DNA of 64,000 nt from Escherichia coli. GTDB taxonomy: Bacteria > Pseudomonadota > Gammaproteobacteria > Enterobacterales > Enterobacteriaceae. The stretch lies in the NCBI RefSeq assembly GCF_030013205.1, contig NZ_CP122648.1; one strand, 5' to 3'. The first letter of the stretch is position 1; each line of letters opens with the position of its first letter. Below are positions 3,360 to 19,243 of the stretch, piece after piece. Under the pieces are notes generated by a model. The model saw only the letters and a program-made list of their open reading frames with translations, had not been told where the DNA came from and did no database searches. Made by a program: the position numbers and the translations under genes.

Positions 3360-4727
3360 TTAACGCATCAGCAGATAGATGCTTTCATTGCCGCGTACAA
3401 TTTGCAGGGCGATGATGGCCGGTTTTGCCGCCAGCACTTTACGCATTTCAGCAATCGAGTTCACCCGATCGCGGTTGACGCCAATGATCACATCGTCTTT
3501 TTGCAAGCCAGCCTGAGCAGCTGGGCTTCCTTTGACAACCTCATCGATCTTAATACCTTTGCCGCCATCTTTTAGCTGACCATCGCTCAACGTTGCACCT
3601 TCAAGCGCTGGCGTGATCATTTCAGCGCTGGCCGACGAAGAGGTGCTGGTATCGAGCGTCACTTCTACTTCCAGTGGTTTGCCGTTACGCAGCAGGCCAA
3701 GCTTCACTTTCGTGCCCGGCTCGGTGGTTGCGATACGAGAGCGCAACTCAGCAAAGCTATTCAGCGGTTTGCCGTTGAGGCTGGTAATAATATCGCCCGC
3801 TTTGACGCCCGCTTTTGCCGAGCCAGAACCTGGCAACACTTCGCTGACAAACGCGCCACGCTGCACGTCAAGGTTGAAGGCTTTGGCGATATCGGCACTC
3901 ATCTCGGTGCCTTTGATGCCTAACAAACCGCGTTTGATTTCACCAAAGTCGATAAGCTGCTGCGCCAGTGTTCGCGCCATATTACTGGGGATGGCAAATC
4001 CAATCCCGACGCTCCCGCCGCCAGGCGCAAGGATTGCAGTGTTGATGCCAATTAACTCACCGTTAAGGTTTAACAGTGCACCGCCGGAGTTACCGCGGTT
4101 AATGGAAGCATCTGTCTGGATAAAGTTTTCCAGACCTTCAAGATTCAACCCACTGCGGCCTAATGCGGAAACAATGCCAGAGGTGGCGGTTTGCCCAAGG
4201 CCAAATGGGTTACCGACCGCCACGGCAAAATCACCGACGCGCAATTTATCGGAGTCGGCAATAGCGATTTGCGTTAATTTGCTCGGGTTTTGAATTTGCA
4301 ACAGGGCGATATCGCTCTGGTCATCGCTACCAATCAGTTTTGCATCAAACTCGCGCCCATCATTGAGCTGAATACTGATTTTCTGTGCCTGATTAATCAC
4401 ATGGTTGTTAGTCAGCACATAGCCTTTACTGGCGTTGATGATGACACCGGAGCCTAAACCTTCGAAGGGTTGTGCCGGTTGATCCGGTAAATCATCACCA
4501 AAAAACTTTTTGAATTCTTCCGGGATTTTCTGTCCCTGACTGGCCGTTCCTTCCACCCGTACGCTCACCACTGCCGGAAGCACTTTTTCCAGCATTGGGG
4601 CCAGACTGGGGAGGGGGGCCTGATCGGCAACCTGGCCTGGAATCGACGCGACGGCCTGAAATGACGCCGAGAGAGTTAACCCGACACTTAACGCTAATGC
4701 ACTCAACAGCTGGGTTTGTTTTTTCAT
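3360..4727 (-). CDS. degQ: periplasmic serine endoprotease DegQ
   Basis: 455 aa from MKKQTQLLSALALSVGL (track ORF has upstream extension); protease plus two PDZ domains. Confidence 0.95.
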   Translation of the reverse strand: MKKQTQLLSALALSVGLTLSASFQAVASIPGQVADQAPLPSLAPMLEKVLPAVVSVRVEGTASQGQKIPEEFKKFFGDDLPDQPAQPFEGLGSGVIINASKGYVLTNNHVINQAQKISIQLNDGREFDAKLIGSDDQSDIALLQIQNPSKLTQIAIADSDKLRVGDFAVAVGNPFGLGQTATSGIVSALGRSGLNLEGLENFIQTDASINRGNSGGALLNLNGELIGINTAILAPGGGSVGIGFAIPSNMARTLAQQLIDFGEIKRGLLGIKGTEMSADIAKAFNLDVQRGAFVSEVLPGSGSAKAGVKAGDIITSLNGKPLNSFAELRSRIATTEPGTKVKLGLLRNGKPLEVEVTLDTSTSSSASAEMITPALEGATLSDGQLKDGGKGIKIDEVVKGSPAAQAGLQKDDVIIGVNRDRVNSIAEMRKVLAAKPAIIALQIVRGNESIYLLMR

Positions 4728-4880
4728 TATTCCTGCTCTCGTACCTGAATGATAAGAAAAGAGATTCAAAACAGTTTGATGTTATTGAATTTTCAGACGG
4801 CTAACAATGAGACACCAGATTAAATGATAGTCGGGGAGGGAGAGAAGAGGAGGGCGCAATGGCTGCGCCCGAAAAATAAA

Positions 4881-5279
4881 TTAGTCGCGCTTCGCGCCAG
4901 TACGCAGCAGGCCGGACGCGCCTTCAGAATAGTCGCGAGGCATCTGCACCGGTGCCTGATCGTTGCTGGCTTCAGACTCTGCCAGACGATTACGGAACGG
5001 GTTTGCTTCAGCAGACAGTTCCGGCAGCAGGCTGCTGGAGCTTTTCGCCATGTGCTGATACAGCTGGCGATAGTCGTGCGCCATGGTATCCAGTAATTCC
5101 GCGCTGCGGGCAAAGTGGCTAACCAGCTCTTCGCGATACTCGTCCAGTTCAGCTTTATTCTTTTCCAGTTCGTACTGCAACGCCTGTTGCTGGCGTAGTT
5201 TACGATTACCAAAACGCATGGCCACAGCACCAATAATGATGCCGACGACTAACCCAATTAGCGCATATTCCCAGGTCAT
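4881..5279 (-). CDS. zapG: inner-membrane cell-division associated protein ZapG/YhcB
   Basis: 132 aa from MTWEYALIGLVVGIIIGAV; N-terminal TM helix then coiled coil; matches YhcB. Confidence 0.92.
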   Translation of the reverse strand: MTWEYALIGLVVGIIIGAVAMRFGNRKLRQQQALQYELEKNKAELDEYREELVSHFARSAELLDTMAHDYRQLYQHMAKSSSSLLPELSAEANPFRNRLAESEASNDQAPVQMPRDYSEGASGLLRTGAKRD

Positions 5280-5472
5280 GAACATCTCCCGTTGTCTTTT
5301 GTTTCCGTAGGGTGTTGGCTTCAGGCTCCATGCCTGCGGCTGATTATGCCACTATAACCGTTAATTCCACAGAAGTGGAATCCCGACTGCATATCGCGTA
5401 GTGTAGAACGGCCTTTTTTTCGTCAACCGTGAACAACGGCGCACCGATTATTCAAGGAATAACAATAAGATC

Positions 5473-6600
5473 ATGCAAAGCGTTACCCCAACATCGCAAT
5501 ACCTGAAGGCGCTCAATGAAGGCAGCCATCAACCCGACGACGTTCAAAAAGAGGCCGTCAGCCGCCTGGAAATTATTTATCAGGAACTCATCAATAGCAC
5601 GCCTCCAGCCCCCAGGACGAGTGGGCTAATGGCGCGGGTCGGTAAGCTGTGGGGTAAACGCGAAGACACAAAGCATACGCCAGTGCGTGGCTTATATATG
5701 TGGGGCGGTGTAGGACGCGGGAAAACCTGGCTGATGGACCTTTTCTATCAAAGCCTGCCGGGAGAGCGGAAACAGCGTCTGCACTTTCACCGTTTTATGC
5801 TGCGGGTGCACGAAGAGCTGACCGAATTACAAGGCCAAAGCGATCCGCTGGAAATTATTGCCGATCGCTTTAAAGCAGAAACTGACGTGCTCTGTTTTGA
5901 CGAATTTTTTGTTTCTGATATTACCGATGCCATGCTACTTGGCGGTCTGATGAAAGCCCTGTTCGCCCGCGGTATTACCCTGGTAGCGACGTCAAATATT
6001 CCGCCGGACGAACTTTATCGAAATGGCCTACAACGTGCGCGTTTTTTGCCTGCAATCGATGCCATTAAACAGCATTGTGATGTAATGAACGTGGACGCTG
6101 GTGTTGATTATCGACTGCGTACACTCACTCAGGCGCATCTGTGGCTTTCGCCCCTCAACGATGAAATCCGGGCGCAAATGGATAAACTATGGTTGGCGCT
6201 GGCGGGGGCGAAACGAGAAAATTCACCGACGTTAGAAATCAACCATCGGCCATTGGCGACAATGGGCGTCGAGAACCAGACGCTGGCGGTCTCTTTTACT
6301 ACGCTGTGCGTCGACGCCCGCAGTCAGCATGACTATATTGCGCTCTCACGCCTCTTTCATACGGTCATGTTGTTTGATGTACCAGTTATGACTCGGTTGA
6401 TGGAGAGTGAAGCGCGGCGCTTTATTGCGCTGGTGGATGAGTTTTACGAGCGCCATGTCAAATTAGTGGTGAGTGCAGAAGTGCCGCTATATGACATTTA
6501 TCAGGGCGAGCGGCTGGAATTTGAGTTCCTGCGTTGCCTGTCACGTCTGCAAGAGATGCAAAGCGAAGAGTATCTGAAGCGCGAGCATTTAGCGGGTTAA
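5473..6600 (+). CDS. zapE: AFG1-like ATPase ZapE
   Basis: 375 aa with Walker A GGVGRGKT; matches E. coli ZapE (YhcM). Confidence 0.93.
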   Translation: MQSVTPTSQYLKALNEGSHQPDDVQKEAVSRLEIIYQELINSTPPAPRTSGLMARVGKLWGKREDTKHTPVRGLYMWGGVGRGKTWLMDLFYQSLPGERKQRLHFHRFMLRVHEELTELQGQSDPLEIIADRFKAETDVLCFDEFFVSDITDAMLLGGLMKALFARGITLVATSNIPPDELYRNGLQRARFLPAIDAIKQHCDVMNVDAGVDYRLRTLTQAHLWLSPLNDEIRAQMDKLWLALAGAKRENSPTLEINHRPLATMGVENQTLAVSFTTLCVDARSQHDYIALSRLFHTVMLFDVPVMTRLMESEARRFIALVDEFYERHVKLVVSAEVPLYDIYQGERLEFEFLRCLSRLQEMQSEEYLKREHLAG

Positions 6601-10602: not shown

Positions 10603-10981
10603 TGTTGAACTCCGTGTCAAAAGAAAACGGTCAATCCCATAAACGGCAGATTGAAAACAATGATGTTATATTTTTTGCAAGGCTATTTATGGTGCGGATG
10701 TCGTGTTTTTAATTGTAGGTGAGGTGATTTTTCATTAAAAAATATGCGCTTATGATTATTTTGTAAGAACACATTTATAATATTCATAATGCTCGTGAAT
10801 AGTCTTATAAATAATTCAATCGGGATGTTTTTATCTGCGTTACATTAATTTTTCGCAATAGTTAATTATTCCGTTAATTATGGTAATGATGAGGCACAAA
10901 GAGAAAACCCTGCCATTTTCCCCTACTTTCAATCCTGTGATAGGATGTCACTGATGATGTTAATCACACTGACCTTACAGA

Positions 10982-11773
10982 ATGGGCCTTATGAACGCAT
11001 TTGATTCGCAAACCGAAGATTCTTCACCTGCAATTGGTCGCAACTTGCGTAGCCGCCCGCTGGCGCGTAAAAAACTCTCCGAAATGGTGGAAGAAGAGCT
11101 GGAACAGATGATCCGCCGTCGTGAATTTGGCGAAGGTGAACAATTACCGTCTGAACGCGAACTGATGGCGTTCTTTAACGTCGGGCGTCCTTCGGTGCGC
11201 GAAGCGCTGGCAGCGTTAAAACGCAAAGGTCTGGTGCAGATAAACAACGGCGAACGCGCTCGCGTCTCACGTCCTTCTGCGGACACCATCATCGGCGAGC
11301 TTTCCGGCATGGCGAAAGATTTCCTTTCTCATCCTGGCGGGATTGCCCATTTCGAACAATTACGTCTGTTCTTTGAATCCAGCCTGGTGCGCTATGCGGC
11401 TGAACACGCCACCGATGAACAAATCGATTTGCTGGCAAAAGCACTGGAAATCAACAGTCAGTCGCTGGATAACAACGCGGCATTCATTCGCTCAGACGTT
11501 GATTTCCACCGCGTTCTGGCGGAGATCCCCGGTAACCCAATCTTCATGGCGATCCACGTTGCTCTGCTCGACTGGCTGATCGCCGCACGTCCAACCGTGG
11601 CTGATCAGGCTCTGCACGAGCATAACAACGTTAGCTATCAACAGCATATTGCGATCGTTGACGCGATCCGCCGCCACGATCCCGATGAAGCCGATCGCGC
11701 GTTGCAATCGCATCTCAACAGCGTCTCTGCTACCTGGCACGCCTTCGGTCAGACCACCAACAAAAAGAAATAA
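10982..11773 (+). CDS. nanR: GntR/FadR-family repressor of sialic acid catabolism NanR
   Basis: 263 aa [32 protein letters not shown]...; N-terminal wHTH. Confidence 0.95.
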
Positions 11774-11836
11774 TGCCACTTTAGTGAAGCAGATCGCATT
11801 ATAAGCTTTCTGTATGGGGTGTTGCTTAATTGATCT

Positions 11837-11859
11837 GGTATAACAGGTATAAAGGTATA
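11837..11859 (+). promoter_or_regulatory. NanR operator: three tandem GGTATA repeats in the nanA promoter
   Basis: ggtataacaggtataaaggtata read directly about 40 bp upstream of the nanA start; matches the known GGTATA-repeat NanR site. Confidence 0.75.
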
Positions 11860-11894
11860 TCGTTTATCAGACAAGCATCACTTCAGAGGTATTT

Positions 11895-12788
11895 ATGGCA
11901 ACGAATTTACGTGGCGTAATGGCCGCACTCCTGACTCCTTTTGACCAACAACAAGCACTGGATAAAGCGAGTCTGCGCCGCCTAGTTCAGTTCAATATTC
12001 AGCAGGGCATCGACGGCTTATACGTGGGTGGTTCGACCGGCGAAGCCTTTGTACAAAGCCTTTCCGAGCGTGAACAGGTACTGGAAATCGTCGCCGAAGA
12101 GGCGAAAGGCAAGATTAAACTCATCGCCCACGTTGGTTGCGTCAGCACTGCTGAAAGCCAACAACTTGCGGCATCGGCTAAACGTTATGGCTTCGATGCC
12201 GTCTCCGCCGTCACGCCGTTCTACTATCCTTTCAGCTTTGAAGAACACTGCGATCACTATCGGGCAATTATTGATTCAGCGGATGGGTTGCCGATGGTGG
12301 TGTACAACATTCCAGCCCTGAGCGGGGTAAAACTGACCCTGGATCAAATCAACACACTTGTTACGTTGCCTGGCGTCGGTGCGCTGAAACAGACTTCTGG
12401 CGATCTCTATCAGATGGAACAGATCCGTCGTGAACATCCTGATCTGGTGCTCTATAACGGTTACGACGAAATCTTCGCCTCTGGTCTTCTGGCGGGCGCT
12501 GATGGTGGTATCGGTAGTACCTACAACATCATGGGCTGGCGTTATCAGGGGATTGTGAAGGCGCTGAAAGAAGGCGATATCCAGACCGCGCAGAAGCTGC
12601 AAACCGAATGTAATAAAGTCATTGATTTACTGATCAAAACGGGCGTATTCCGCGGCCTGAAAACGGTCCTGCATTATATGGATGTCGTTTCTGTGCCGCT
12701 GTGCCGCAAACCGTTTGGACCGGTAGATGAAAAATATCTGCCAGAACTGAAGGCGCTGGCCCAGCAGTTGATGCAAGAGCGCGGGTGA
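11895..12788 (+). CDS. nanA: N-acetylneuraminate lyase
   Basis: 297 aa [31 protein letters not shown]...; class I aldolase. Confidence 0.96.
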
Positions 12789-12896
12789 GTTGTTTCCCCT
12801 CGCTCGCCCCTACCGGGTGAGGGGAAATAAACGCATCTGTACCCTACAATTTTCATACCAAAGCGTGTGGGCATCGCCCACCGCGGGAGACTCACA

Positions 12897-14387
12897 ATGA
12901 GTACTACAACCCAGAATATCCCGTGGTATCGCCATCTCAATCGTGCACAATGGCGGGCATTTTCCGCTGCCTGGTTGGGATATCTGCTTGACGGTTTTGA
13001 TTTCGTTTTAATCGCCCTGGTACTCACCGAAGTACAAGGTGAATTCGGGCTGACGACGGTGCAGGCGGCAAGTCTGATCTCCGCAGCCTTTATCTCTCGC
13101 TGGTTCGGCGGCCTGATGCTCGGCGCTATGGGTGACCGCTACGGGCGTCGTCTGGCAATGGTCACCAGCATCGTTCTCTTCTCGGCCGGGACGCTGGCCT
13201 GCGGCTTTGCGCCAGGCTACATCACCATGTTTATCGCTCGTCTGGTCATCGGCATGGGGATGGCGGGTGAATACGGTTCCAGCGCCACCTATGTCATTGA
13301 AAGCTGGCCAAAACATCTGCGTAATAAAGCCAGTGGTTTTCTGATTTCCGGCTTCTCTGTGGGGGCCGTCGTTGCCGCTCAGGTCTATAGCCTGGTGGTT
13401 CCGGTCTGGGGCTGGCGTGCGCTGTTCTTTATCGGCATTTTGCCAATCATCTTTGCTCTCTGGCTGCGTAAAAACATCCCGGAAGCGGAAGACTGGAAAG
13501 AGAAACATGCTGGTAAAGCACCAGTACGCACGATGGTAGATATTCTCTACCGTGGTGAACATCGCATTGCCAATATCGTAATGACACTGGCGGCGGCTAC
13601 TGCGCTGTGGTTTTGCTTCGCCGGTAACCTGCAAAATGCCGCGATCGTCGCTGTTCTTGGGCTGTTATGCGCCGCAATCTTTATCAGCTTTATGGTGCAA
13701 AGTACGGGCAAACGCTGGCCAACGGGCGTAATGCTGATGGTGGTCGTGTTGTTTGCTTTCCTCTACTCATGGCCGATTCAGGCGCTGCTGCCAACGTATC
13801 TGAAAACCGATCTGGCTTATAACCCGCATACTGTCGCCAATGTGCTGTTCTTTAGTGGCTTTGGCGCGGCGGTGGGATGCTGCGTAGGTGGCTTCCTCGG
13901 TGACTGGCTGGGAACCCGCAAAGCGTACGTTTGTAGCCTGCTGGCCTCGCAGCTGCTGATTATTCCGGTATTTGCGATTGGCGGCGCAAACGTCTGGGTG
14001 CTCGGTCTGTTACTGTTCTTCCAGCAAATGCTTGGACAAGGGATCGCCGGGATCTTACCGAAACTGATTGGCGGTTATTTCGATACCGACCAGCGTGCAG
14101 CGGGCCTGGGCTTTACCTACAACGTCGGCGCATTGGGCGGTGCACTGGCCCCAATCATCGGCGCGTTGATCGCTCAACGTCTGGATCTGGGTACTGCGCT
14201 GGCATCGCTCTCGTTCAGTCTGACATTTGTGGTGATCCTGCTGATTGGTCTGGATATGCCTTCCCGCGTTCAGCGTTGGCTGCGCCCGGAAGCATTGCGT
14301 ACTCATGACGCTATCGACGGCAAACCATTTAGCGGTGCCGTGCCATTTGGCCGCGCCAAAAACGATTTAGTCAAAACCAAAAGTTAA
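12897..14387 (+). CDS. nanT: sialic acid:H+ symporter (MFS)
   Basis: 496 aa from [22 protein letters not shown] (internal ATG; track ORF starts at an upstream GTG). Confidence 0.95.
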
Positions 14388-14434
14388 TCCTGTTGCCCGG
14401 TCTCTGTACCGGGCCTTTCGCTAAGGGAAGATGT

Positions 14435-15120
14435 ATGTCGTTACTTGCACAACTGGATCAAAAAATCGCTGCTAACGGTGGCCTGATTGTCTCCTGCCAG
14501 CCGGTTCCGGACAGCCCGCTCGATAAACCCGAAATCGTCGCCGCCATGGCATTAGCGGCAGAACAGGCGGGCGCGGTTGCCATTCGCATTGAAGGTGTGG
14601 CAAATCTGCAAGCCACGCGTGCGGTGGTGAGCGTGCCAATTATCGGGATTGTGAAACGCGATCTGGAGGATTCTCCGGTACGCATCACGGCCTATATTGA
14701 AGATGTTGATGCGCTGGCGCAGGCGGGCGCGGACATTATCGCCATTGACGGCACCGACCGCCCGCGTCCGGTGCCTGTTGAAACGTTGCTGGCACGTATT
14801 CACCATCACGGTTTACTGGCGATGACCGACTGCTCAACGCCGGAAGACGGCCTGGCATGCCAAAAGCTGGGAGCCGAAATTATTGGCACTACGCTTTCTG
14901 GCTATACCACGCCTGAAACGCCAGAAGAGCCGGATCTGGCGCTGGTGAAAACGTTGAGCGACGCCGGATGTCGGGTGATTGCCGAAGGGCGTTACAACAC
15001 GCCTGCTCAGGCGGCAGATGCGATGCGCCACGGCGCGTGGGCGGTGACGGTCGGTTCTGCCATTACGCGTCTTGAACACATTTGTCAGTGGTACAACACA
15101 GCGATGAAAAAGGCGGTGCT

Positions 15121-15124
<4 letters not shown>
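14435..15124 (+). CDS. nanE: N-acetylmannosamine-6-phosphate 2-epimerase
   Basis: 229 aa from [23 protein letters not shown]. Confidence 0.95.
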
Positions 15125-16457
<1,333 letters not shown>

Positions 16458-16516
16458 AACTTAGTTCGTTTTAAAGATTCTGCAGACACTGTCTGCAGAA
16501 TTCGAAACCGCTGAAA

Positions 16517-17629
16517 TTAACGGCGTCTATAGCCTTCCTCTAGCACCGCCTGTGTTCGAACGAGTTCATCCGCGAGTCGTTTTTCATCAGGTAGTTGCAT
16601 CTTATATTCGCTCGCCAGAACGGTGTTAGGCAAACCAGCCAGTGCATAATACGCTTCGCCGGCTCCTTTCTCTGCACAGAGAACCAGACCGATGGGCGGA
16701 TTTTCATCCGGTAGTGTCCAGTGCTCTTTGGCGTAGTTGAGATACATATTCATCTGTCCGGCATCGCTATAGCTGAATTTGCCCACTTTTAGATCGACGA
16801 TTAGCAGGCAGCGTAAACGGCGGTGGAAAAACAGCAGATCGACACGAAACCAGTTGTCATCAATGCGTAACCTTCGCTGTCGACCAACAAAGGCAAAATC
16901 ATCCCCAAGTTCCAGCATGAAATCCATCAGGTGGTTGATCAGCGCCTCCTCAAAATCGGATTCTGAGTATTCATCTTTCAATTCCAGAAATTCGAGCACA
17001 AAGGGATCGCGTATCGCCTGCTGCGGAAGAATATGCGTCTCGGTAGGAGCGTGTTGTTGCAGCATGGCTGATTTGTCATGTGACAGTAGTGTCCGCTCAT
17101 AAAACTGGGTCGCAATTTGTCGTTCGAGCTGACGAGCAGACCAGCCACAGCGGAGTGTCTCTTTCTCATAAAAGCTGCGAGCATCAGCTTTTTTAACAGA
17201 AAGCAAACGGACGTAAGTGGACCAGGGCAGGGGGAAGGATTTGGCGAGTTGCGCTAAATGGCAAGATTCTCCAGACACAGTCTGGAGAATTGTGGGGGTG
17301 AATTGTGCAGACAGTGTCTGCACAATTTCAATTCTTTGAAAACAAATATAAAAATTCTTAAACTGCCATAAATTCCTGGTGGAAAATCCACGCTTATACC
17401 TTAGACTTAAATCCTTTGATAGTCGCTTGATTAGCTGCGCACCATACGCAGCCCTGGCCTCGCCACCTTGTTCAAATTCGACAATTCGTCGGCCAATTTC
17501 CCAGTACGTCGCGGTCATTAACGCGTTAACGCTACGTACCGTTTCCGTTCGGGCGCTATCGACCAGATGAATAATGCCGTCGTGGATTTGCTGGTAGCCT
17601 GCTGTGGTTCCTTCTGAGAGCGATTCCAT
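16517..17629 (-). CDS. yhcG: DUF1016 / YhcG-family putative PD-(D/E)XK nuclease
   Basis: 370 aa; C-terminal RVDLLFFH...LLIVDLKVGK resembles a PD-(D/E)XK core; contains an internal 12-residue tandem repeat encoded by palindromic DNA (see findings). Confidence 0.8.
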   Translation of the reverse strand: MESLSEGTTAGYQQIHDGIIHLVDSARTETVRSVNALMTATYWEIGRRIVEFEQGGEARAAYGAQLIKRLSKDLSLRYKRGFSTRNLWQFKNFYICFQRIEIVQTLSAQFTPTILQTVSGESCHLAQLAKSFPLPWSTYVRLLSVKKADARSFYEKETLRCGWSARQLERQIATQFYERTLLSHDKSAMLQQHAPTETHILPQQAIRDPFVLEFLELKDEYSESDFEEALINHLMDFMLELGDDFAFVGRQRRLRIDDNWFRVDLLFFHRRLRCLLIVDLKVGKFSYSDAGQMNMYLNYAKEHWTLPDENPPIGLVLCAEKGAGEAYYALAGLPNTVLASEYKMQLPDEKRLADELVRTQAVLEEGYRRR

Positions 17630-17812
17630 TATCTGTCCCTTAATATGGCGCAGTGTTGAATAATGGAATCAGCTATACGCCGGGCATCTGCCGGTAACAA
17701 TCCAGATGTGCGTATTACATTGGTTTTCTTCAGATTATGCGAGGCGCTTTCCAGAACGAAAGGAGAATTTCAGCGCCGACTCTTTTCTGAGGAGGCGGCG
17801 CTGGGACAGAGC

Positions 17813-19243
<1,431 letters not shown>

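Follow-up and report, generated by a model that had tools for sequence, protein, structure and literature searches.

What kind of enzyme does yhcG of Escherichia coli encode, and what is the role of the palindromes that lie in its reading frame? A restriction-enzyme-like nuclease was predicted for this gene in 2005. An earlier note on the 64-kb stretch of E. coli DNA analysed here (the window) had described it as the gene of an uncharacterised, putative PD-(D/E)XK-type nuclease. Alone, this finding is ordinary, that of a known, uncharacterised predicted nuclease. The analysis that follows revealed in addition a hairpin that is conserved in nucleotides and not in peptide, and that coincides with rearrangement junctions of the locus.

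The YhcG protein and its family

The 370-residue reading frame lies on the minus strand, exactly at the coordinates given by the earlier note (Table 1). Profile searches support the nuclease assignment, since both Pfam domains were matched far over their gathering cut-offs, with the N-to-C order kept: DUF1016_N (PF17761) at E = 5.8e-43 and 146.7 bits (cut-off 32.8) and YhcG_C (PF06250) at E = 3.3e-56 and 189.9 bits (cut-off 32.5). No match to YhcG was obtained with NCBIfam profiles. Structure prediction also supports a PD-(D/E)XK fold, the AF2 model (pLDDT 82.6) having the core alpha-beta-beta-beta-alpha-beta. The D...(D/E)xK pattern claimed for the C-terminal region was borne out as well: D264 and D279-L-K281 lie in the quoted peptide, NWFRVDLLFFHRRLRCLLIVDLKVGKFSYSDAGQMNMYLNY, which is found in YhcG, and together with E240 and Q292xxxY296 they give a full predicted catalytic set. 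These positions (E240, D264, D/E279, K281, Q292, Y296) are kept in 51-56 of 57 diverse homologues: E240, D264 and K281 in 53-56, D/E279 in 55, Q292 in 51 and Y296 in 52. The QxxxY motif (Q292-M-N-M-Y296) lies in the helix that follows strand three and is a mark of the RecB/NucS/Cas4-like subgroup.

The closest solved fold to the nuclease domain is that of NucS. However, YhcG has no detectable sequence similarity to NucS/EndoMS (DUF91; PDB 2VLD) or to any other solved chain (PDB sequence search, none at E <= 1). The N-terminal domain of NucS is a beta-barrel-like DNA-binding domain, whereas that of YhcG is the helical, unrelated DUF1016_N and, as judged from a reading of the sequence, the YhcG C-terminus carries no evident clamp-binding motif. 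A beta-clamp-binding motif had been considered in view of the dnaN synthetic lethality described below; it was rejected by eye, as both the Q-T-x-S repeats and the C-terminus misfit the consensus, which is of the QL[SD]LF type. The resemblance of the all-helical N-terminal domain to ParB/KorB corresponds to marginal structural scores, and this domain shows no sequence signal, CTPase or ParB N-terminal domain. YhcG would be a two-domain enzyme, made of a helical N-terminal module, possibly a ParB/KorB-like DNA binder, and of a C-terminal NucS/RecB-type PD-(D/E)XK nuclease.

Table 1. Features of the yhcG region (positions in the window)
Feature	Position	Strand	Remarks
yhcG coding sequence	16517..17629	minus	ATG start, TAA stop, 370 aa, intact; WP_000445130.1 in strain CFSAN018748
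DUF1016_N domain, aa 19-179	17093..17575	minus	all-helical; weak resemblance to ParB/KorB helix-turn-helix DNA-binding domain
YhcG_C PD-(D/E)XK nuclease domain, aa 203-355	16565..17023	minus	
Predicted catalytic codon E240	16910-16912		
Predicted catalytic codon D264	16838-16840		
Predicted catalytic codon D279	16793-16795		
Predicted catalytic codon K281	16787-16789		
Predicted catalytic codon Q292	16754-16756		
Predicted catalytic codon Y296	16742-16744		
Hypervariable cassette, codons 75-140	17210..17407	minus	centred on the hairpins; from alignment to K-12
Hairpin unit P1, ATTGTGCAGACAcTGTCTGCACAAT	17302..17326		perfect palindrome; in frame, I102-V-Q-T-L-S-A-Q; covariance model 41.3 bits
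Hairpin unit P2, ATTCTCCAGACtgtGTCTGGAGAAT	17266..17290		perfect 11-nt arms; I114-L-Q-T-V-S-G-E; covariance model 38 bits
Degenerate third unit	17238..17265		right arm GCCAAAT alone left; covariance model 9 bits
Post-stop hairpin, ATTCTGCAGACAgTGTCTGCAGAAT	16477..16501		perfect palindrome in the 59-nt nanQ/yhcG gap; covariance model 43.7 bits
Inverted repeat at start codon	17622..17670	minus	11 nt, perfect (17622-17632 with 17660-17670); would pair the AUG start codon with upstream mRNA
gltD-yhcG intergenic region, 183 nt	17630..17812	minus	homology to the K-12 yhcG upstream region ends near 17756

Clustering at 50% identity leaves 24,055 representatives of the DUF1016/YhcG family, which, as the earlier note stated, is without established function. 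The sole PHROGs match of YhcG is to a family of unknown function, and no biochemical report on the family was found in the literature searched. The PADLOC profile PDC-S02, a guilt-by-embedding defence candidate (10.1101/2024.01.29.577857), matches YhcG over its full length (aa 9-365, E = 2.3e-133); among the PADLOC matches listed for the protein, the only other one is a Cas-associated PD_DExK model. Shedu SduA, HamA, McrC-type and Can2/Card1 effectors are PD-(D/E)XK defence nucleases of other families.

The gene neighbours of 80 relatives were then compared. Upstream, HsdM-type methylases were found in 14 of 76 cases and phage integrases in 11 of 76; HsdS was found downstream in 9 of 74, and ResIII, GmrSD, Cas1 and AbiEii-type genes were also observed. 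Relatives are found inside type I restriction-modification operons or beside island integrases, adjacency to a known defence system being seen in a minority of them. Unlike this embedding, E. coli yhcG lies between gltD and the nan operon; its neighbours in the window are gltD and nanQ, not a defence system, and the locus is not part of a defence island. Across Enterobacteriaceae, it keeps its place beside gltD. We infer that YhcG is a metal-dependent DNA endonuclease of the restriction or defence type, both the nuclease activity and the role in defence being putative. In K-12, deletion of yhcG shows synthetic lethality with hypomorphs of dnaB, dnaN and parE, and the protein is found in association with HsdMRS and McrBC (PMC2672614). 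A cold-seep PDC-S02 homologue was not among the candidates protective against T4, T5 and T7 (10.1101/2024.09.26.614923). In contrast to Shedu SduA-type nucleases, the YhcG family is a candidate defence family only, the test of this one homologue being negative.

Palindromic units within and beside yhcG

Each unit is a 25-nt perfect palindrome with an 11-bp stem and a 3-nt loop. In the gene, the units are 36-39 nt apart, with spacers of 11-14 nt, and their stems differ. Tandem Repeats Finder found nothing in yhcG because the units are too divergent; they came to light on reading the sequence and in a repeat search (find_repeats). At the place of the degenerate third unit, K-12 has an intact one. 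The flanks of the post-stop hairpin resemble those of the internal units, and this copy is not present in Salmonella and Citrobacter. Three copies in 64 kb compare with zero expected by chance, the next-best covariance-model site in the window scoring 15 bits. The internal units sit in a cassette with 62.9% nucleotide identity to K-12 and 15 gap columns, as compared to 98.2% identity upstream and 96.5% downstream. Among E. coli yhcG alleles, the number of units is 1, 2+ or 3, and protein lengths are 349, 370 and 375 aa.

The same element was found across the family. One to four tandem 25-nt palindromes encode a loop between two N-domain helices. One or more copies lie at nucleotides ~265-330 in 78 of 80 relatives, drawn from many phyla and from genomes with a GC content of 34-68%. 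At some loci (L054, L109, L142) an extra copy lies 80-140 nt upstream of the gene. Hairpin density is 1.13 per kb within the relatives' genes, as compared to 0.078 per kb in their flanks, and the hairpin centre falls in the same codon phase in 125 of 131 units. Stem positions 2-12 show 85-99% Watson-Crick pairing, and position 13 shows 44%, percentages that are circular because the underlying alignment was chosen for pairing. Double-sided stem changes were counted against shuffles: 167 were observed versus 50, and none of 500 shuffles reached the observed value. In a second, divergent subfamily, a hairpin of at least 9/10 occurs in the loop region of 23 of 38 genes, versus 1 of 38 elsewhere in the gene.

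It could be argued that the peptide is what is selected, as a repeated I-x-Q-T-x-S-x-x-S surface-loop motif, the palindromy of the DNA being incidental. The motif is indeed recognisable and repeated in many members, and its frame is constant. Codon usage speaks against this explanation. In units picked by peptide only, serine is TCT in 97 of 100 cases and isoleucine ATT in 75 of 77. In genomes of at least 60% GC, TCT is used in 36 of 36 units against a background of 7%, ATT in 29 of 29, and threonine is never ACC. Synonymous sites are therefore fixed to pairing-competent codons against a strong genomic bias. Moreover, a Q-to-P change in one unit is accompanied by a compensating TCT-to-TCG change, divergent members have perfect hairpins with the unrelated peptides IRDALRLE, ILSTVWRE and FLDAARRE, and a non-coding copy is perfect too. 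Finally, the encoded residues form a low-confidence loop in structure models and are predicted to be disordered. Selection on the peptide is hardly credible.

The palindrome might also be an independent mobile or dispersed repeat that has invaded DUF1016 genes in frame, in the manner of REP, MITE or Rickettsia RPE elements. RPEs are short palindromic DNA, sometimes in frame and translated inside genes, and REPs occur between convergent genes; the yhcG unit resembles the former by its in-frame palindrome and the latter by the post-stop copy between convergent genes. However, RPEs and REPs are dispersed in many copies at unrelated loci, whereas the yhcG unit, 25 nt long, belongs to one family, at one position and in one phase. 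In viral contigs, the pattern has 41 exact matches, of which 16 have no DUF1016 gene beside them; these stand-alone matches are near-perfect palindromes, some of them in tandem. Extragenic copies exist in E. coli as well. By estimate rather than computation, chance hairpins fitting the 8-base arm pattern could explain the viral matches. The E. coli copies are confined to the yhcG locus, and the position and phase shared across the family argue for descent, not repeated insertion. This origin is very improbable. E. coli genomes have a median of 3 hairpin places each (4 in K-12 types, corresponding to their four yhcG-locus copies), which rules out REP/BIME-type dispersed palindromes.

Several other identities were rejected. 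A CRISPR array is ruled out, the units being in an ORF and in frame, with differing repeats and short spacers. Of the stems in the family, only the TTAAC/GTTAA variants conform to an integron attC-like R''/R' signature, and Tth111I-type GACNNNGTC recognition leaves the covarying outer stem unexplained. Rfam covariance models gave no family match, the best E-value being 3.1 with unrelated snoRNA models. For the hairpin core sequence, the only matches in the literature searched were to unrelated shRNAs or primers, and nothing was found there on in-frame palindromes within restriction-like genes.

Arrangement of the locus in E. coli

The context reported by the earlier note was confirmed. yhcG is convergent with the nan operon, the nanQ stop being at 16457, and adjoins the 3' end of gltD, with which it shares the strand and whose stop codon precedes it by 183 nt. 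In K-12, gltF-yhcA-yhcD-yhcE::IS5-yhcF separate the two genes. As for conservation of the neighbourhood across Enterobacteriaceae, the gltD-yhcG arrangement of the window is that of Salmonella, Citrobacter and the majority of complete E. coli genomes, where three configurations account for 58% (as in the window), 23% and 17.5%. Since this arrangement is both the majority one and shared with Salmonella and Citrobacter, it is probably K-12 that carries an insertion, in the form of its 8.3-kb block. This gltF-yhcADEF-yhcG block has hairpin copies on both flanks, and in contrast to the K-12 gltD end, the gltD-yhcG intergenic region of the window has no copy.

Near-full-length yhcG (at least 80%) is present in 3347 of 5426 complete E. 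coli genomes, ~38% being without such a copy. It is cleanly absent in 947, and in others it is disrupted by IS1, IS629 or foreign DNA. At the yhcG-less junction, the two hairpin copies flanking the K-12 block are combined into a hybrid; this junction is nearly identical in 944 genomes and probably goes back to one event. A deletion of this type could be mediated by any 25-nt repeat. The yhcG-less strains keep a perfect hairpin copy in non-coding DNA. In strain 120899, foreign DNA begins exactly at the 3' edge of hairpin unit 3.

Such losses and disruptions would be expected if E. coli yhcG were a decaying remnant without current function, the variation of the locus reflecting erosion. Against this, the ORF is intact here and has 529 identical database members, the catalytic residues are intact, and alleles are 96-98% identical outside the cassette, with no frameshifts. 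Moreover, synteny of the gene extends to Salmonella and Citrobacter, and the K-12 data show expression and genetic interactions. Decay is improbable.

Possible nature of the hairpin

Overall, we consider it somewhat better than an even chance that YhcG is a nuclease and that the hairpins in its gene are a DNA-level, recombination-prone palindrome. The data above show that the element exists, that it is conserved in nucleotides and that it coincides with junctions. On the folding strand or molecule, the way in which the element is maintained and its benefit to the cell, we infer the following. The hairpin would be chiefly a DNA-level element, forming a hairpin or a cruciform, within a loop tolerant of sequence change. 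The complementarity of its arms may be due to selection, to template-switch ('quasipalindrome') correction or to a combination of the two. The palindrome would promote local rearrangement, with in-frame shifts in unit number and a hypervariable cassette as outcomes, and would seed deletion or insertion junctions. With 11 bp, the arm is short for a cruciform to extrude in vivo. Quasipalindrome template switching, as studied with E. coli thyA and lacZ QP reporters, converts imperfect into perfect palindromes and produces double-sided changes without selection. This phenomenon is known at arbitrary sites; to our knowledge, it has never been described as a conserved site of a protein family across phyla.

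The hairpins could also work at the level of the yhcG transcript, controlling its expression in cis or its stability. As a site of pausing, processing or protein binding, for example, they would limit a potentially toxic nuclease. Stable RNA hairpins are predicted, with -33.3 kcal/mol (z -5.8) for the two internal units of this allele and -55 kcal/mol (z -8.1) for the three K-12 units. Transcript position and codon phase are conserved, the covariation is compatible with base pairing in any single strand, and the extra upstream copies fit such a role. However, stem mismatches comprise 13 GT and 29 AC, so that sense-strand G.U pairs are not in excess; A.C is also the commoner in the second subfamily. 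This asymmetry may be driven by codon choice. Furthermore, perfect copies survive outside transcribed yhcG, even in strains without the gene, and Rfam contains no matching family. The units are not terminator-like either, with a T-rich side 5' and an A-rich side 3' on both strands. Indeed, an intrinsic (Rho-independent) terminator is ruled out by the lack of a 3' U-tract on either strand (units 5'-ATT...stem...AAT-3'); a loose terminator consensus scan listed P1 only, with a number of sites no higher than in shuffles. A role in the mRNA is possible, if doubtful. The inverted repeat at the start codon folds in both alleles, yet its overall z is only -1.6 and -1.3 versus shuffles, which is not significant.

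A reading that agrees with the DNA-level palindrome, and would extend it, makes the hairpin a substrate or operator of YhcG itself, leading to autoregulation or to targeted breaks as starting points of gene conversion and rearrangement. The nuclease domain is nearest to NucS and Holliday-junction-resolvase-like enzymes acting on distorted DNA (PMC1189080), and the N-terminal domain weakly resembles ParB/KorB, which bind palindromic sites. In addition, hypervariation and junctions cluster at the hairpins, and hairpin and protein family co-occur almost universally. This evidence is purely correlative. Three units per gene with differing stems argue against sequence-specific recognition at the variable positions, and strains without yhcG have kept a perfect copy. 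We hold this extension only tentatively and think it rather unlikely. More speculative still, and quite unlikely, is that YhcG-family enzymes at large are structure-specific nucleases or binders of stem-loops or cruciforms within their own genes. Gene and enzyme would then form a self-contained module, in which YhcG, by acting on the hairpins of its own gene, would set its own dose or, alternatively, would make targeted breaks leading to cassette hypervariation, change in unit number and rearrangement of the locus.

The hairpin element appears to be new: Rfam and the literature searched carry nothing on it. For a large family that had none, and that is routinely flagged as the PDC-S02 defence candidate in genome surveys, the conserved hairpin is a concrete and cheap experimental handle. 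The 'I-x-Q-T-x-S' repeats and the allele lengths are products of a DNA element, not protein features, and alignments, domain models or selection scans treating the repeats as protein features would be misled. The hairpin copies at the junctions between K-12-type and yhcG-less forms explain the polymorphic architecture of the E. coli locus, and the view of K-12 as the reference form of this locus is corrected. If the hairpins are indeed a ligand of the enzyme encoded by the same gene, a very large nuclease family has a built-in nucleic-acid partner, overlooked because it was read as protein.

The yhcG gene and its predicted protein

The open reading frame lies where the earlier note had placed it (see table), and the surrounding 2.4 kb are 100% identical to strain CFSAN018748, in which yhcG is annotated as 'PDDEXK nuclease domain-containing protein'. 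G+C content of the gene is 0.47-0.49, as compared to 0.52-0.60 for the nan and glt genes on either side. By sequence, the product matches two Pfam domains, no NCBIfam model and no solved chain; its PHROGs match is a family of unknown function. An AlphaFold model using 57 diverse homologues as input (mean pLDDT 82.6) displays the canonical alpha-beta-beta-beta-alpha-beta core. The catalytic columns are kept in 51 to 56 of the 57 homologues and window yhcG is intact at each. Pfam domains, model core and catalytic residues thus bear out the PD-(D/E)XK nuclease reading of the earlier note. An identical assignment, with the DUF91/NucS link, had been published in 2005 (PMC1189080). Overall, YhcG is an intact NucS-like PD-(D/E)XK protein of the YhcG/PDC-S02 family, a correct finding that is by itself ordinary.

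Two smaller repeats were observed. Through a perfect 11-nt inverted repeat, the AUG of yhcG would base-pair with sequence further upstream, the Shine-Dalgarno region lying in the resulting loop. K-12 keeps 10 of the 11 positions, and the folds are not significant as compared to shuffles (z -1.6 and -1.3). The stationary-phase ncRNA G0-10703 of K-12 is reported to be antisense to the yhcG 5'UTR (PMC7967276). A 30-nt direct repeat, 77% identical, between the 3' part of yhcG and the 3' end of gltD is probably due to chance.

Features of yhcG, its hairpins and the compared loci
Feature	Position	Sequence or detail
yhcG	window 16517-17629, minus strand	ATG to TAA, 370 aa
DUF1016_N	aa 19-179	Pfam, E 5.8e-43
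YhcG_C	aa 203-355	Pfam, E 3.3e-56
Catalytic set in window YhcG		E240, D264, D279 (D or E in family), K281, Q292xxxY296
Hypervariable cassette	window 17210-17407	codons 75-140
Hairpin unit, perfect palindrome	window 17302-17326	ATTGTGCAGACAcTGTCTGCACAAT
Hairpin unit, perfect palindrome	window 17266-17290	ATTCTCCAGACtgtGTCTGGAGAAT
Degenerate third unit	window 17238-17265	
Post-stop hairpin, perfect	window 16477-16501	ATTCTGCAGACAgTGTCTGCAGAAT, directly after yhcG stop codon
Start-codon inverted repeat	window 17622-17632 / 17660-17670	
Direct repeat yhcG/gltD	window 16635-16664 / 17821-17850	
K-12 fimbrial block comparison	window 17630-17812 vs K-12 (L001) 10930-17956	
Fifth K-12 hairpin copy	K-12 (L001) 17913-17943	33.8 bits
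Hairpin of yhcG-less TUM13773	L126 1183-1213	perfect
Junction region in strain 120899	L127 1127-1235, junction ~1131	
Genes between yhcG and nanQ, Salmonella and Citrobacter	L185 6219-8739; L186 6221-8741	
Divergent-member hairpin		GATTCGAGACGCgctGCGTCTCGAATC, IRDALRLE
Divergent-member hairpin		AATTCTCTCCACagtGTGGAGAGAATT, ILSTVWRE
Divergent-member hairpin		TTCTCGACGCagcGCGTCGAGAA, FLDAARRE

In-frame hairpin units and allele divergence

Window and K-12 YhcG are 90% identical, the differences being restricted to residues ~75-140. At the nucleotide level, identity is 98.2% for codons 1-74 and 96.5% for codons 141-370, and falls to 62.9% with 15 gap columns for codons 75-140. This divergence can be ascribed to the perfect palindromes located there. 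The copies differ from each other while each remains self-complementary (GTG/CAC, CTC/GAG, TGG/CCA, CTG/CAG). In K-12 yhcG, three internal units recur every 39 nt (13 codons) and the same post-stop copy is present. The 349-aa O157-type allele contains one unit; in Salmonella and Citrobacter there is a single internal unit, and the post-stop copy is absent. With a covariance model, three window copies scored 38-44 bits as compared to 15 bits at the next-best site; the unit pattern was found nowhere else in the 64 kb, where none is expected by chance.

Within the cassette (compared with P0060), the window sequence …STRNLWQFKNFYICFQRIEIVQTLSAQ… is nearer to the Salmonella protein (…STRNLWQIRTFYLCFQHIEIPQTLSAE…) than to K-12 (…SAKNLRQMRLFYLFFQHVEIHQTMSGE…), which suggests either old allelic lineages or exchange of the cassette only between genera.

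Known types of element were considered. Rfam gave no match to the unit. A terminator was rejected, since on either strand T adjoins the stem on its 5' side and A on its 3' side. A CRISPR array and a REP-type dispersed repeat were likewise rejected. The unit occurs at a median of three places per E. coli genome; the four places in K-12-type strains fit the four yhcG-locus copies (three internal and post-stop) known before the fifth described below. Searches of the open-access literature for the unit sequence or the concept of an in-gene palindrome returned nothing relevant.

Rearrangements at the gltD-yhcG-nanQ locus

The claim that the genomic context differs from K-12 held: gltF-yhcA-yhcD-yhcE::IS5-yhcF stands between gltD and yhcG in K-12 and is missing from the window. 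Using junction-specific searches in 5426 complete E. coli genomes, the window-type gltD-yhcG junction was found in 3139, the K-12-type junction in 1236 and a yhcG-less nanQ-gltD junction in 947. The order gltB-gltD-yhcG with nothing between is also that of Salmonella and Citrobacter. Together with the 3139 genomes, this indicates that the window arrangement is common and probably ancestral, the gltF-to-yhcF fimbrial block being a probable insertion carried by K-12. At least 80% of yhcG is present in only 3347 of the 5426 genomes; in others the gene is broken by IS1, IS629 or foreign DNA. On the other side of yhcG, Salmonella and Citrobacter carry cytosine/purine permease-type and amidohydrolase genes before nanQ, where E. 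coli has only a 59-nt spacer with the post-stop hairpin.

A fifth K-12 copy, detected with the covariance model, directly follows the gltD stop, so that the 8.3-kb gltF-yhcADEF-yhcG block has hairpin copies on both sides. In the yhcG-less strain TUM13773, the entire nanQ-gltD spacer is 67 bp long and contains one perfect hairpin. It shares its stem and its gltD-side flank (32 of 33 nt) with the K-12 post-gltD copy, and on the nanQ side its flank matches the post-yhcG copy. In the 947 yhcG-less genomes, little besides one such hybrid hairpin separates nanQ from gltD. This hybrid is consistent with a recombination product of two copies or with the empty site of a hairpin-duplicating insertion. 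Across 944 genomes this junction hardly differs, so that one event probably accounts for it. In strain 120899, the 3' two-thirds of yhcG have been exchanged for foreign DNA, which begins precisely where unit 3 ends on its 3' side. Overall, hypervariation between alleles, changes in unit number and rearrangement junctions of two kinds all coincide with the hairpin array.

The insert of 120899 (~430 bp) contains a 101-aa ORF annotated 'transposase' (WP_000639208.1), and the truncated yhcG form also occurs in several other genomes (H59-H64).

Pairing, peptide and possible roles across the family

In frame, the unit encodes I-x-Q-T-x-S-x-x-S, directly upstream of the conserved LSWSHY; in distant representatives the motif occurs once to four times or more. 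Among 80 loci of YhcG relatives from named genomes (34-68% G+C), 78 carry at least one hairpin inside the gene at nt ~265-330, as defined by 11-nt arms with at least 10 Watson-Crick pairs. Hairpins number 1.13 per kb within the genes as compared to 0.078 per kb in flanking DNA, and the unit centre occupies a single codon phase in 125 of 131 units. Across these 131 units, pairing ranges from 85 to 99% over stem positions 2-12 and drops to 44% at position 13, which delimits an 11-bp stem with a 3-nt loop. At stem positions 7-9, CG, GC, TA and AT replace one another freely.

In a gap-free alignment of 98 units, pre-chosen for pairing so that the figure is circular, 93.9% of cells are paired as compared to 76.7% after shuffling and 22-50% with the partner slid. 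Double-sided changes number 167 where ~50 are expected, a value reached in none of 500 shuffles. Our conclusion is based instead on three tests free of this circularity: the site detection in 78 of 80 loci, codon usage in units chosen by peptide, and divergent members. In peptide-chosen units, Ser is TCT in 97/100, Ile is ATT in 75/77 and Thr is ACA or ACG in 99/100, never ACC. In genomes of at least 60% G+C, TCT accounts for 36/36 unit serines vs 7% of the Ser codons outside the units of these genes. Divergent members (35-41% identity to YhcG) carry a perfect hairpin at the equivalent site and in the equivalent phase, built from unrelated stems and encoding unrelated peptides. In a second subfamily, from viral contigs, a loop-region hairpin (at least 9 of 10 pairs) occurs in 23/38 distinct genes vs 1/38 elsewhere in the gene. 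In one unit, a Q to P change (CAG to CCG) is matched by TCT to TCG on the opposite arm. Both models also have their lowest internal confidence at the hairpin-encoded residues (pLDDT 48-54). Taken together, codon choice, divergent members, the second subfamily, the compensated change and low pLDDT exclude peptide-level selection as the main force. The gene contains a conserved, covarying in-frame hairpin array, a feature of the whole family.

Extra copies lie upstream of the gene in three relatives' loci (L054, ~-142; L109, ~-96; L142, 2394-2424, -107), and a fourth (L152, 478-543) has two tandem copies ~1.4 kb upstream; these may lie in the promoter or 5'UTR region. Of 41 exact pattern matches in viral contigs, 16 have no DUF1016 gene nearby and were not counted as family members, since ordinary hairpins could fit the pattern by chance. 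Contigs of this kind show intergenic near-perfect palindromes (L024 9938-9985; L041 4740-4764 and 6062-6086; L008 5813-5837), some in tandem, some repeated 1.3 kb apart with identical flanks; these, too, may be ordinary hairpins that fit the pattern by accident.

No biochemical study of YhcG was found in the literature. It is reported to associate with HsdMRS, McrBC and integrases, and its deletion to be synthetic-lethal with hypomorphic dnaB, dnaN and parE (PMC2672614). YhcG matches PADLOC PDC-S02 end to end (E 2.3e-133), one of 145 defence candidates taken from genes embedded within BREX, DISARM or type I RM loci (10.1101/2024.01.29.577857); one PDC-S02 homologue assayed against T4, T5 and T7 was not among the protective systems (10.1101/2024.09.26.614923). 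A 'DUF1016 family protein' is 17-fold enriched beside programmed-inversion targets, mostly hsdS (PMC9881135), and Rickettsia RAGE elements are among the ICEs that carry the family (PMC4316617). In the 80 loci, upstream neighbours (n=76) include 14 HsdM-type methylases and 11 phage-type integrases, downstream neighbours (n=74) include 9 HsdS, and ResIII/SNF2 helicases, GmrSD, Cas1, AbiEii-type ATPases, RadC and TOTE primases also occur. Sampled relatives are 53-66% identical to E. coli YhcG despite their origin in many phyla, which points to horizontal spread.

Ten proteobacterial loci (L073, L078, L080, L083, L090, L092, L093, L096, L098, L106) have a same-strand upstream ORF of ~415-450 aa (positions ~4700-5960) that stops a few dozen nt short of the DUF1016 gene. 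We assume that they account for the 11 upstream phage-type integrases, 10 of which have an Arm-DNA-bind_3 domain according to a Pfam count made over all upstream neighbours together. If these ORFs are integrases, they would form a recurrent integrase-YhcG pair at island ends.

We consider it slightly better than an even chance that YhcG is an active DNA endonuclease in foreign-DNA conflicts and that the hairpin acts mainly as DNA. The hairpin would be a palindrome in a tolerant loop, promoting local rearrangement, its arms kept complementary by selection, by template-switch correction, or both. Template-switch correction is a known mutational mechanism of E. coli. Regulation by the hairpin within yhcG mRNA appears unlikely. 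Sense-strand G.T mismatches in stems (13) are rarer than A.C (29), which argues weakly against wobble tolerance in sense RNA, though codon choice (Lys vs Glu) may contribute. Recognition of the hairpin by YhcG itself, compatible with the DNA-level reading and the most interesting of the readings, we hold to be a little less probable still. It is for this hairpin element, which we have not found described, that yhcG merits attention, as a direct starting point for experiments on a very large family with no known function (24,055 representatives at 50% clustering).
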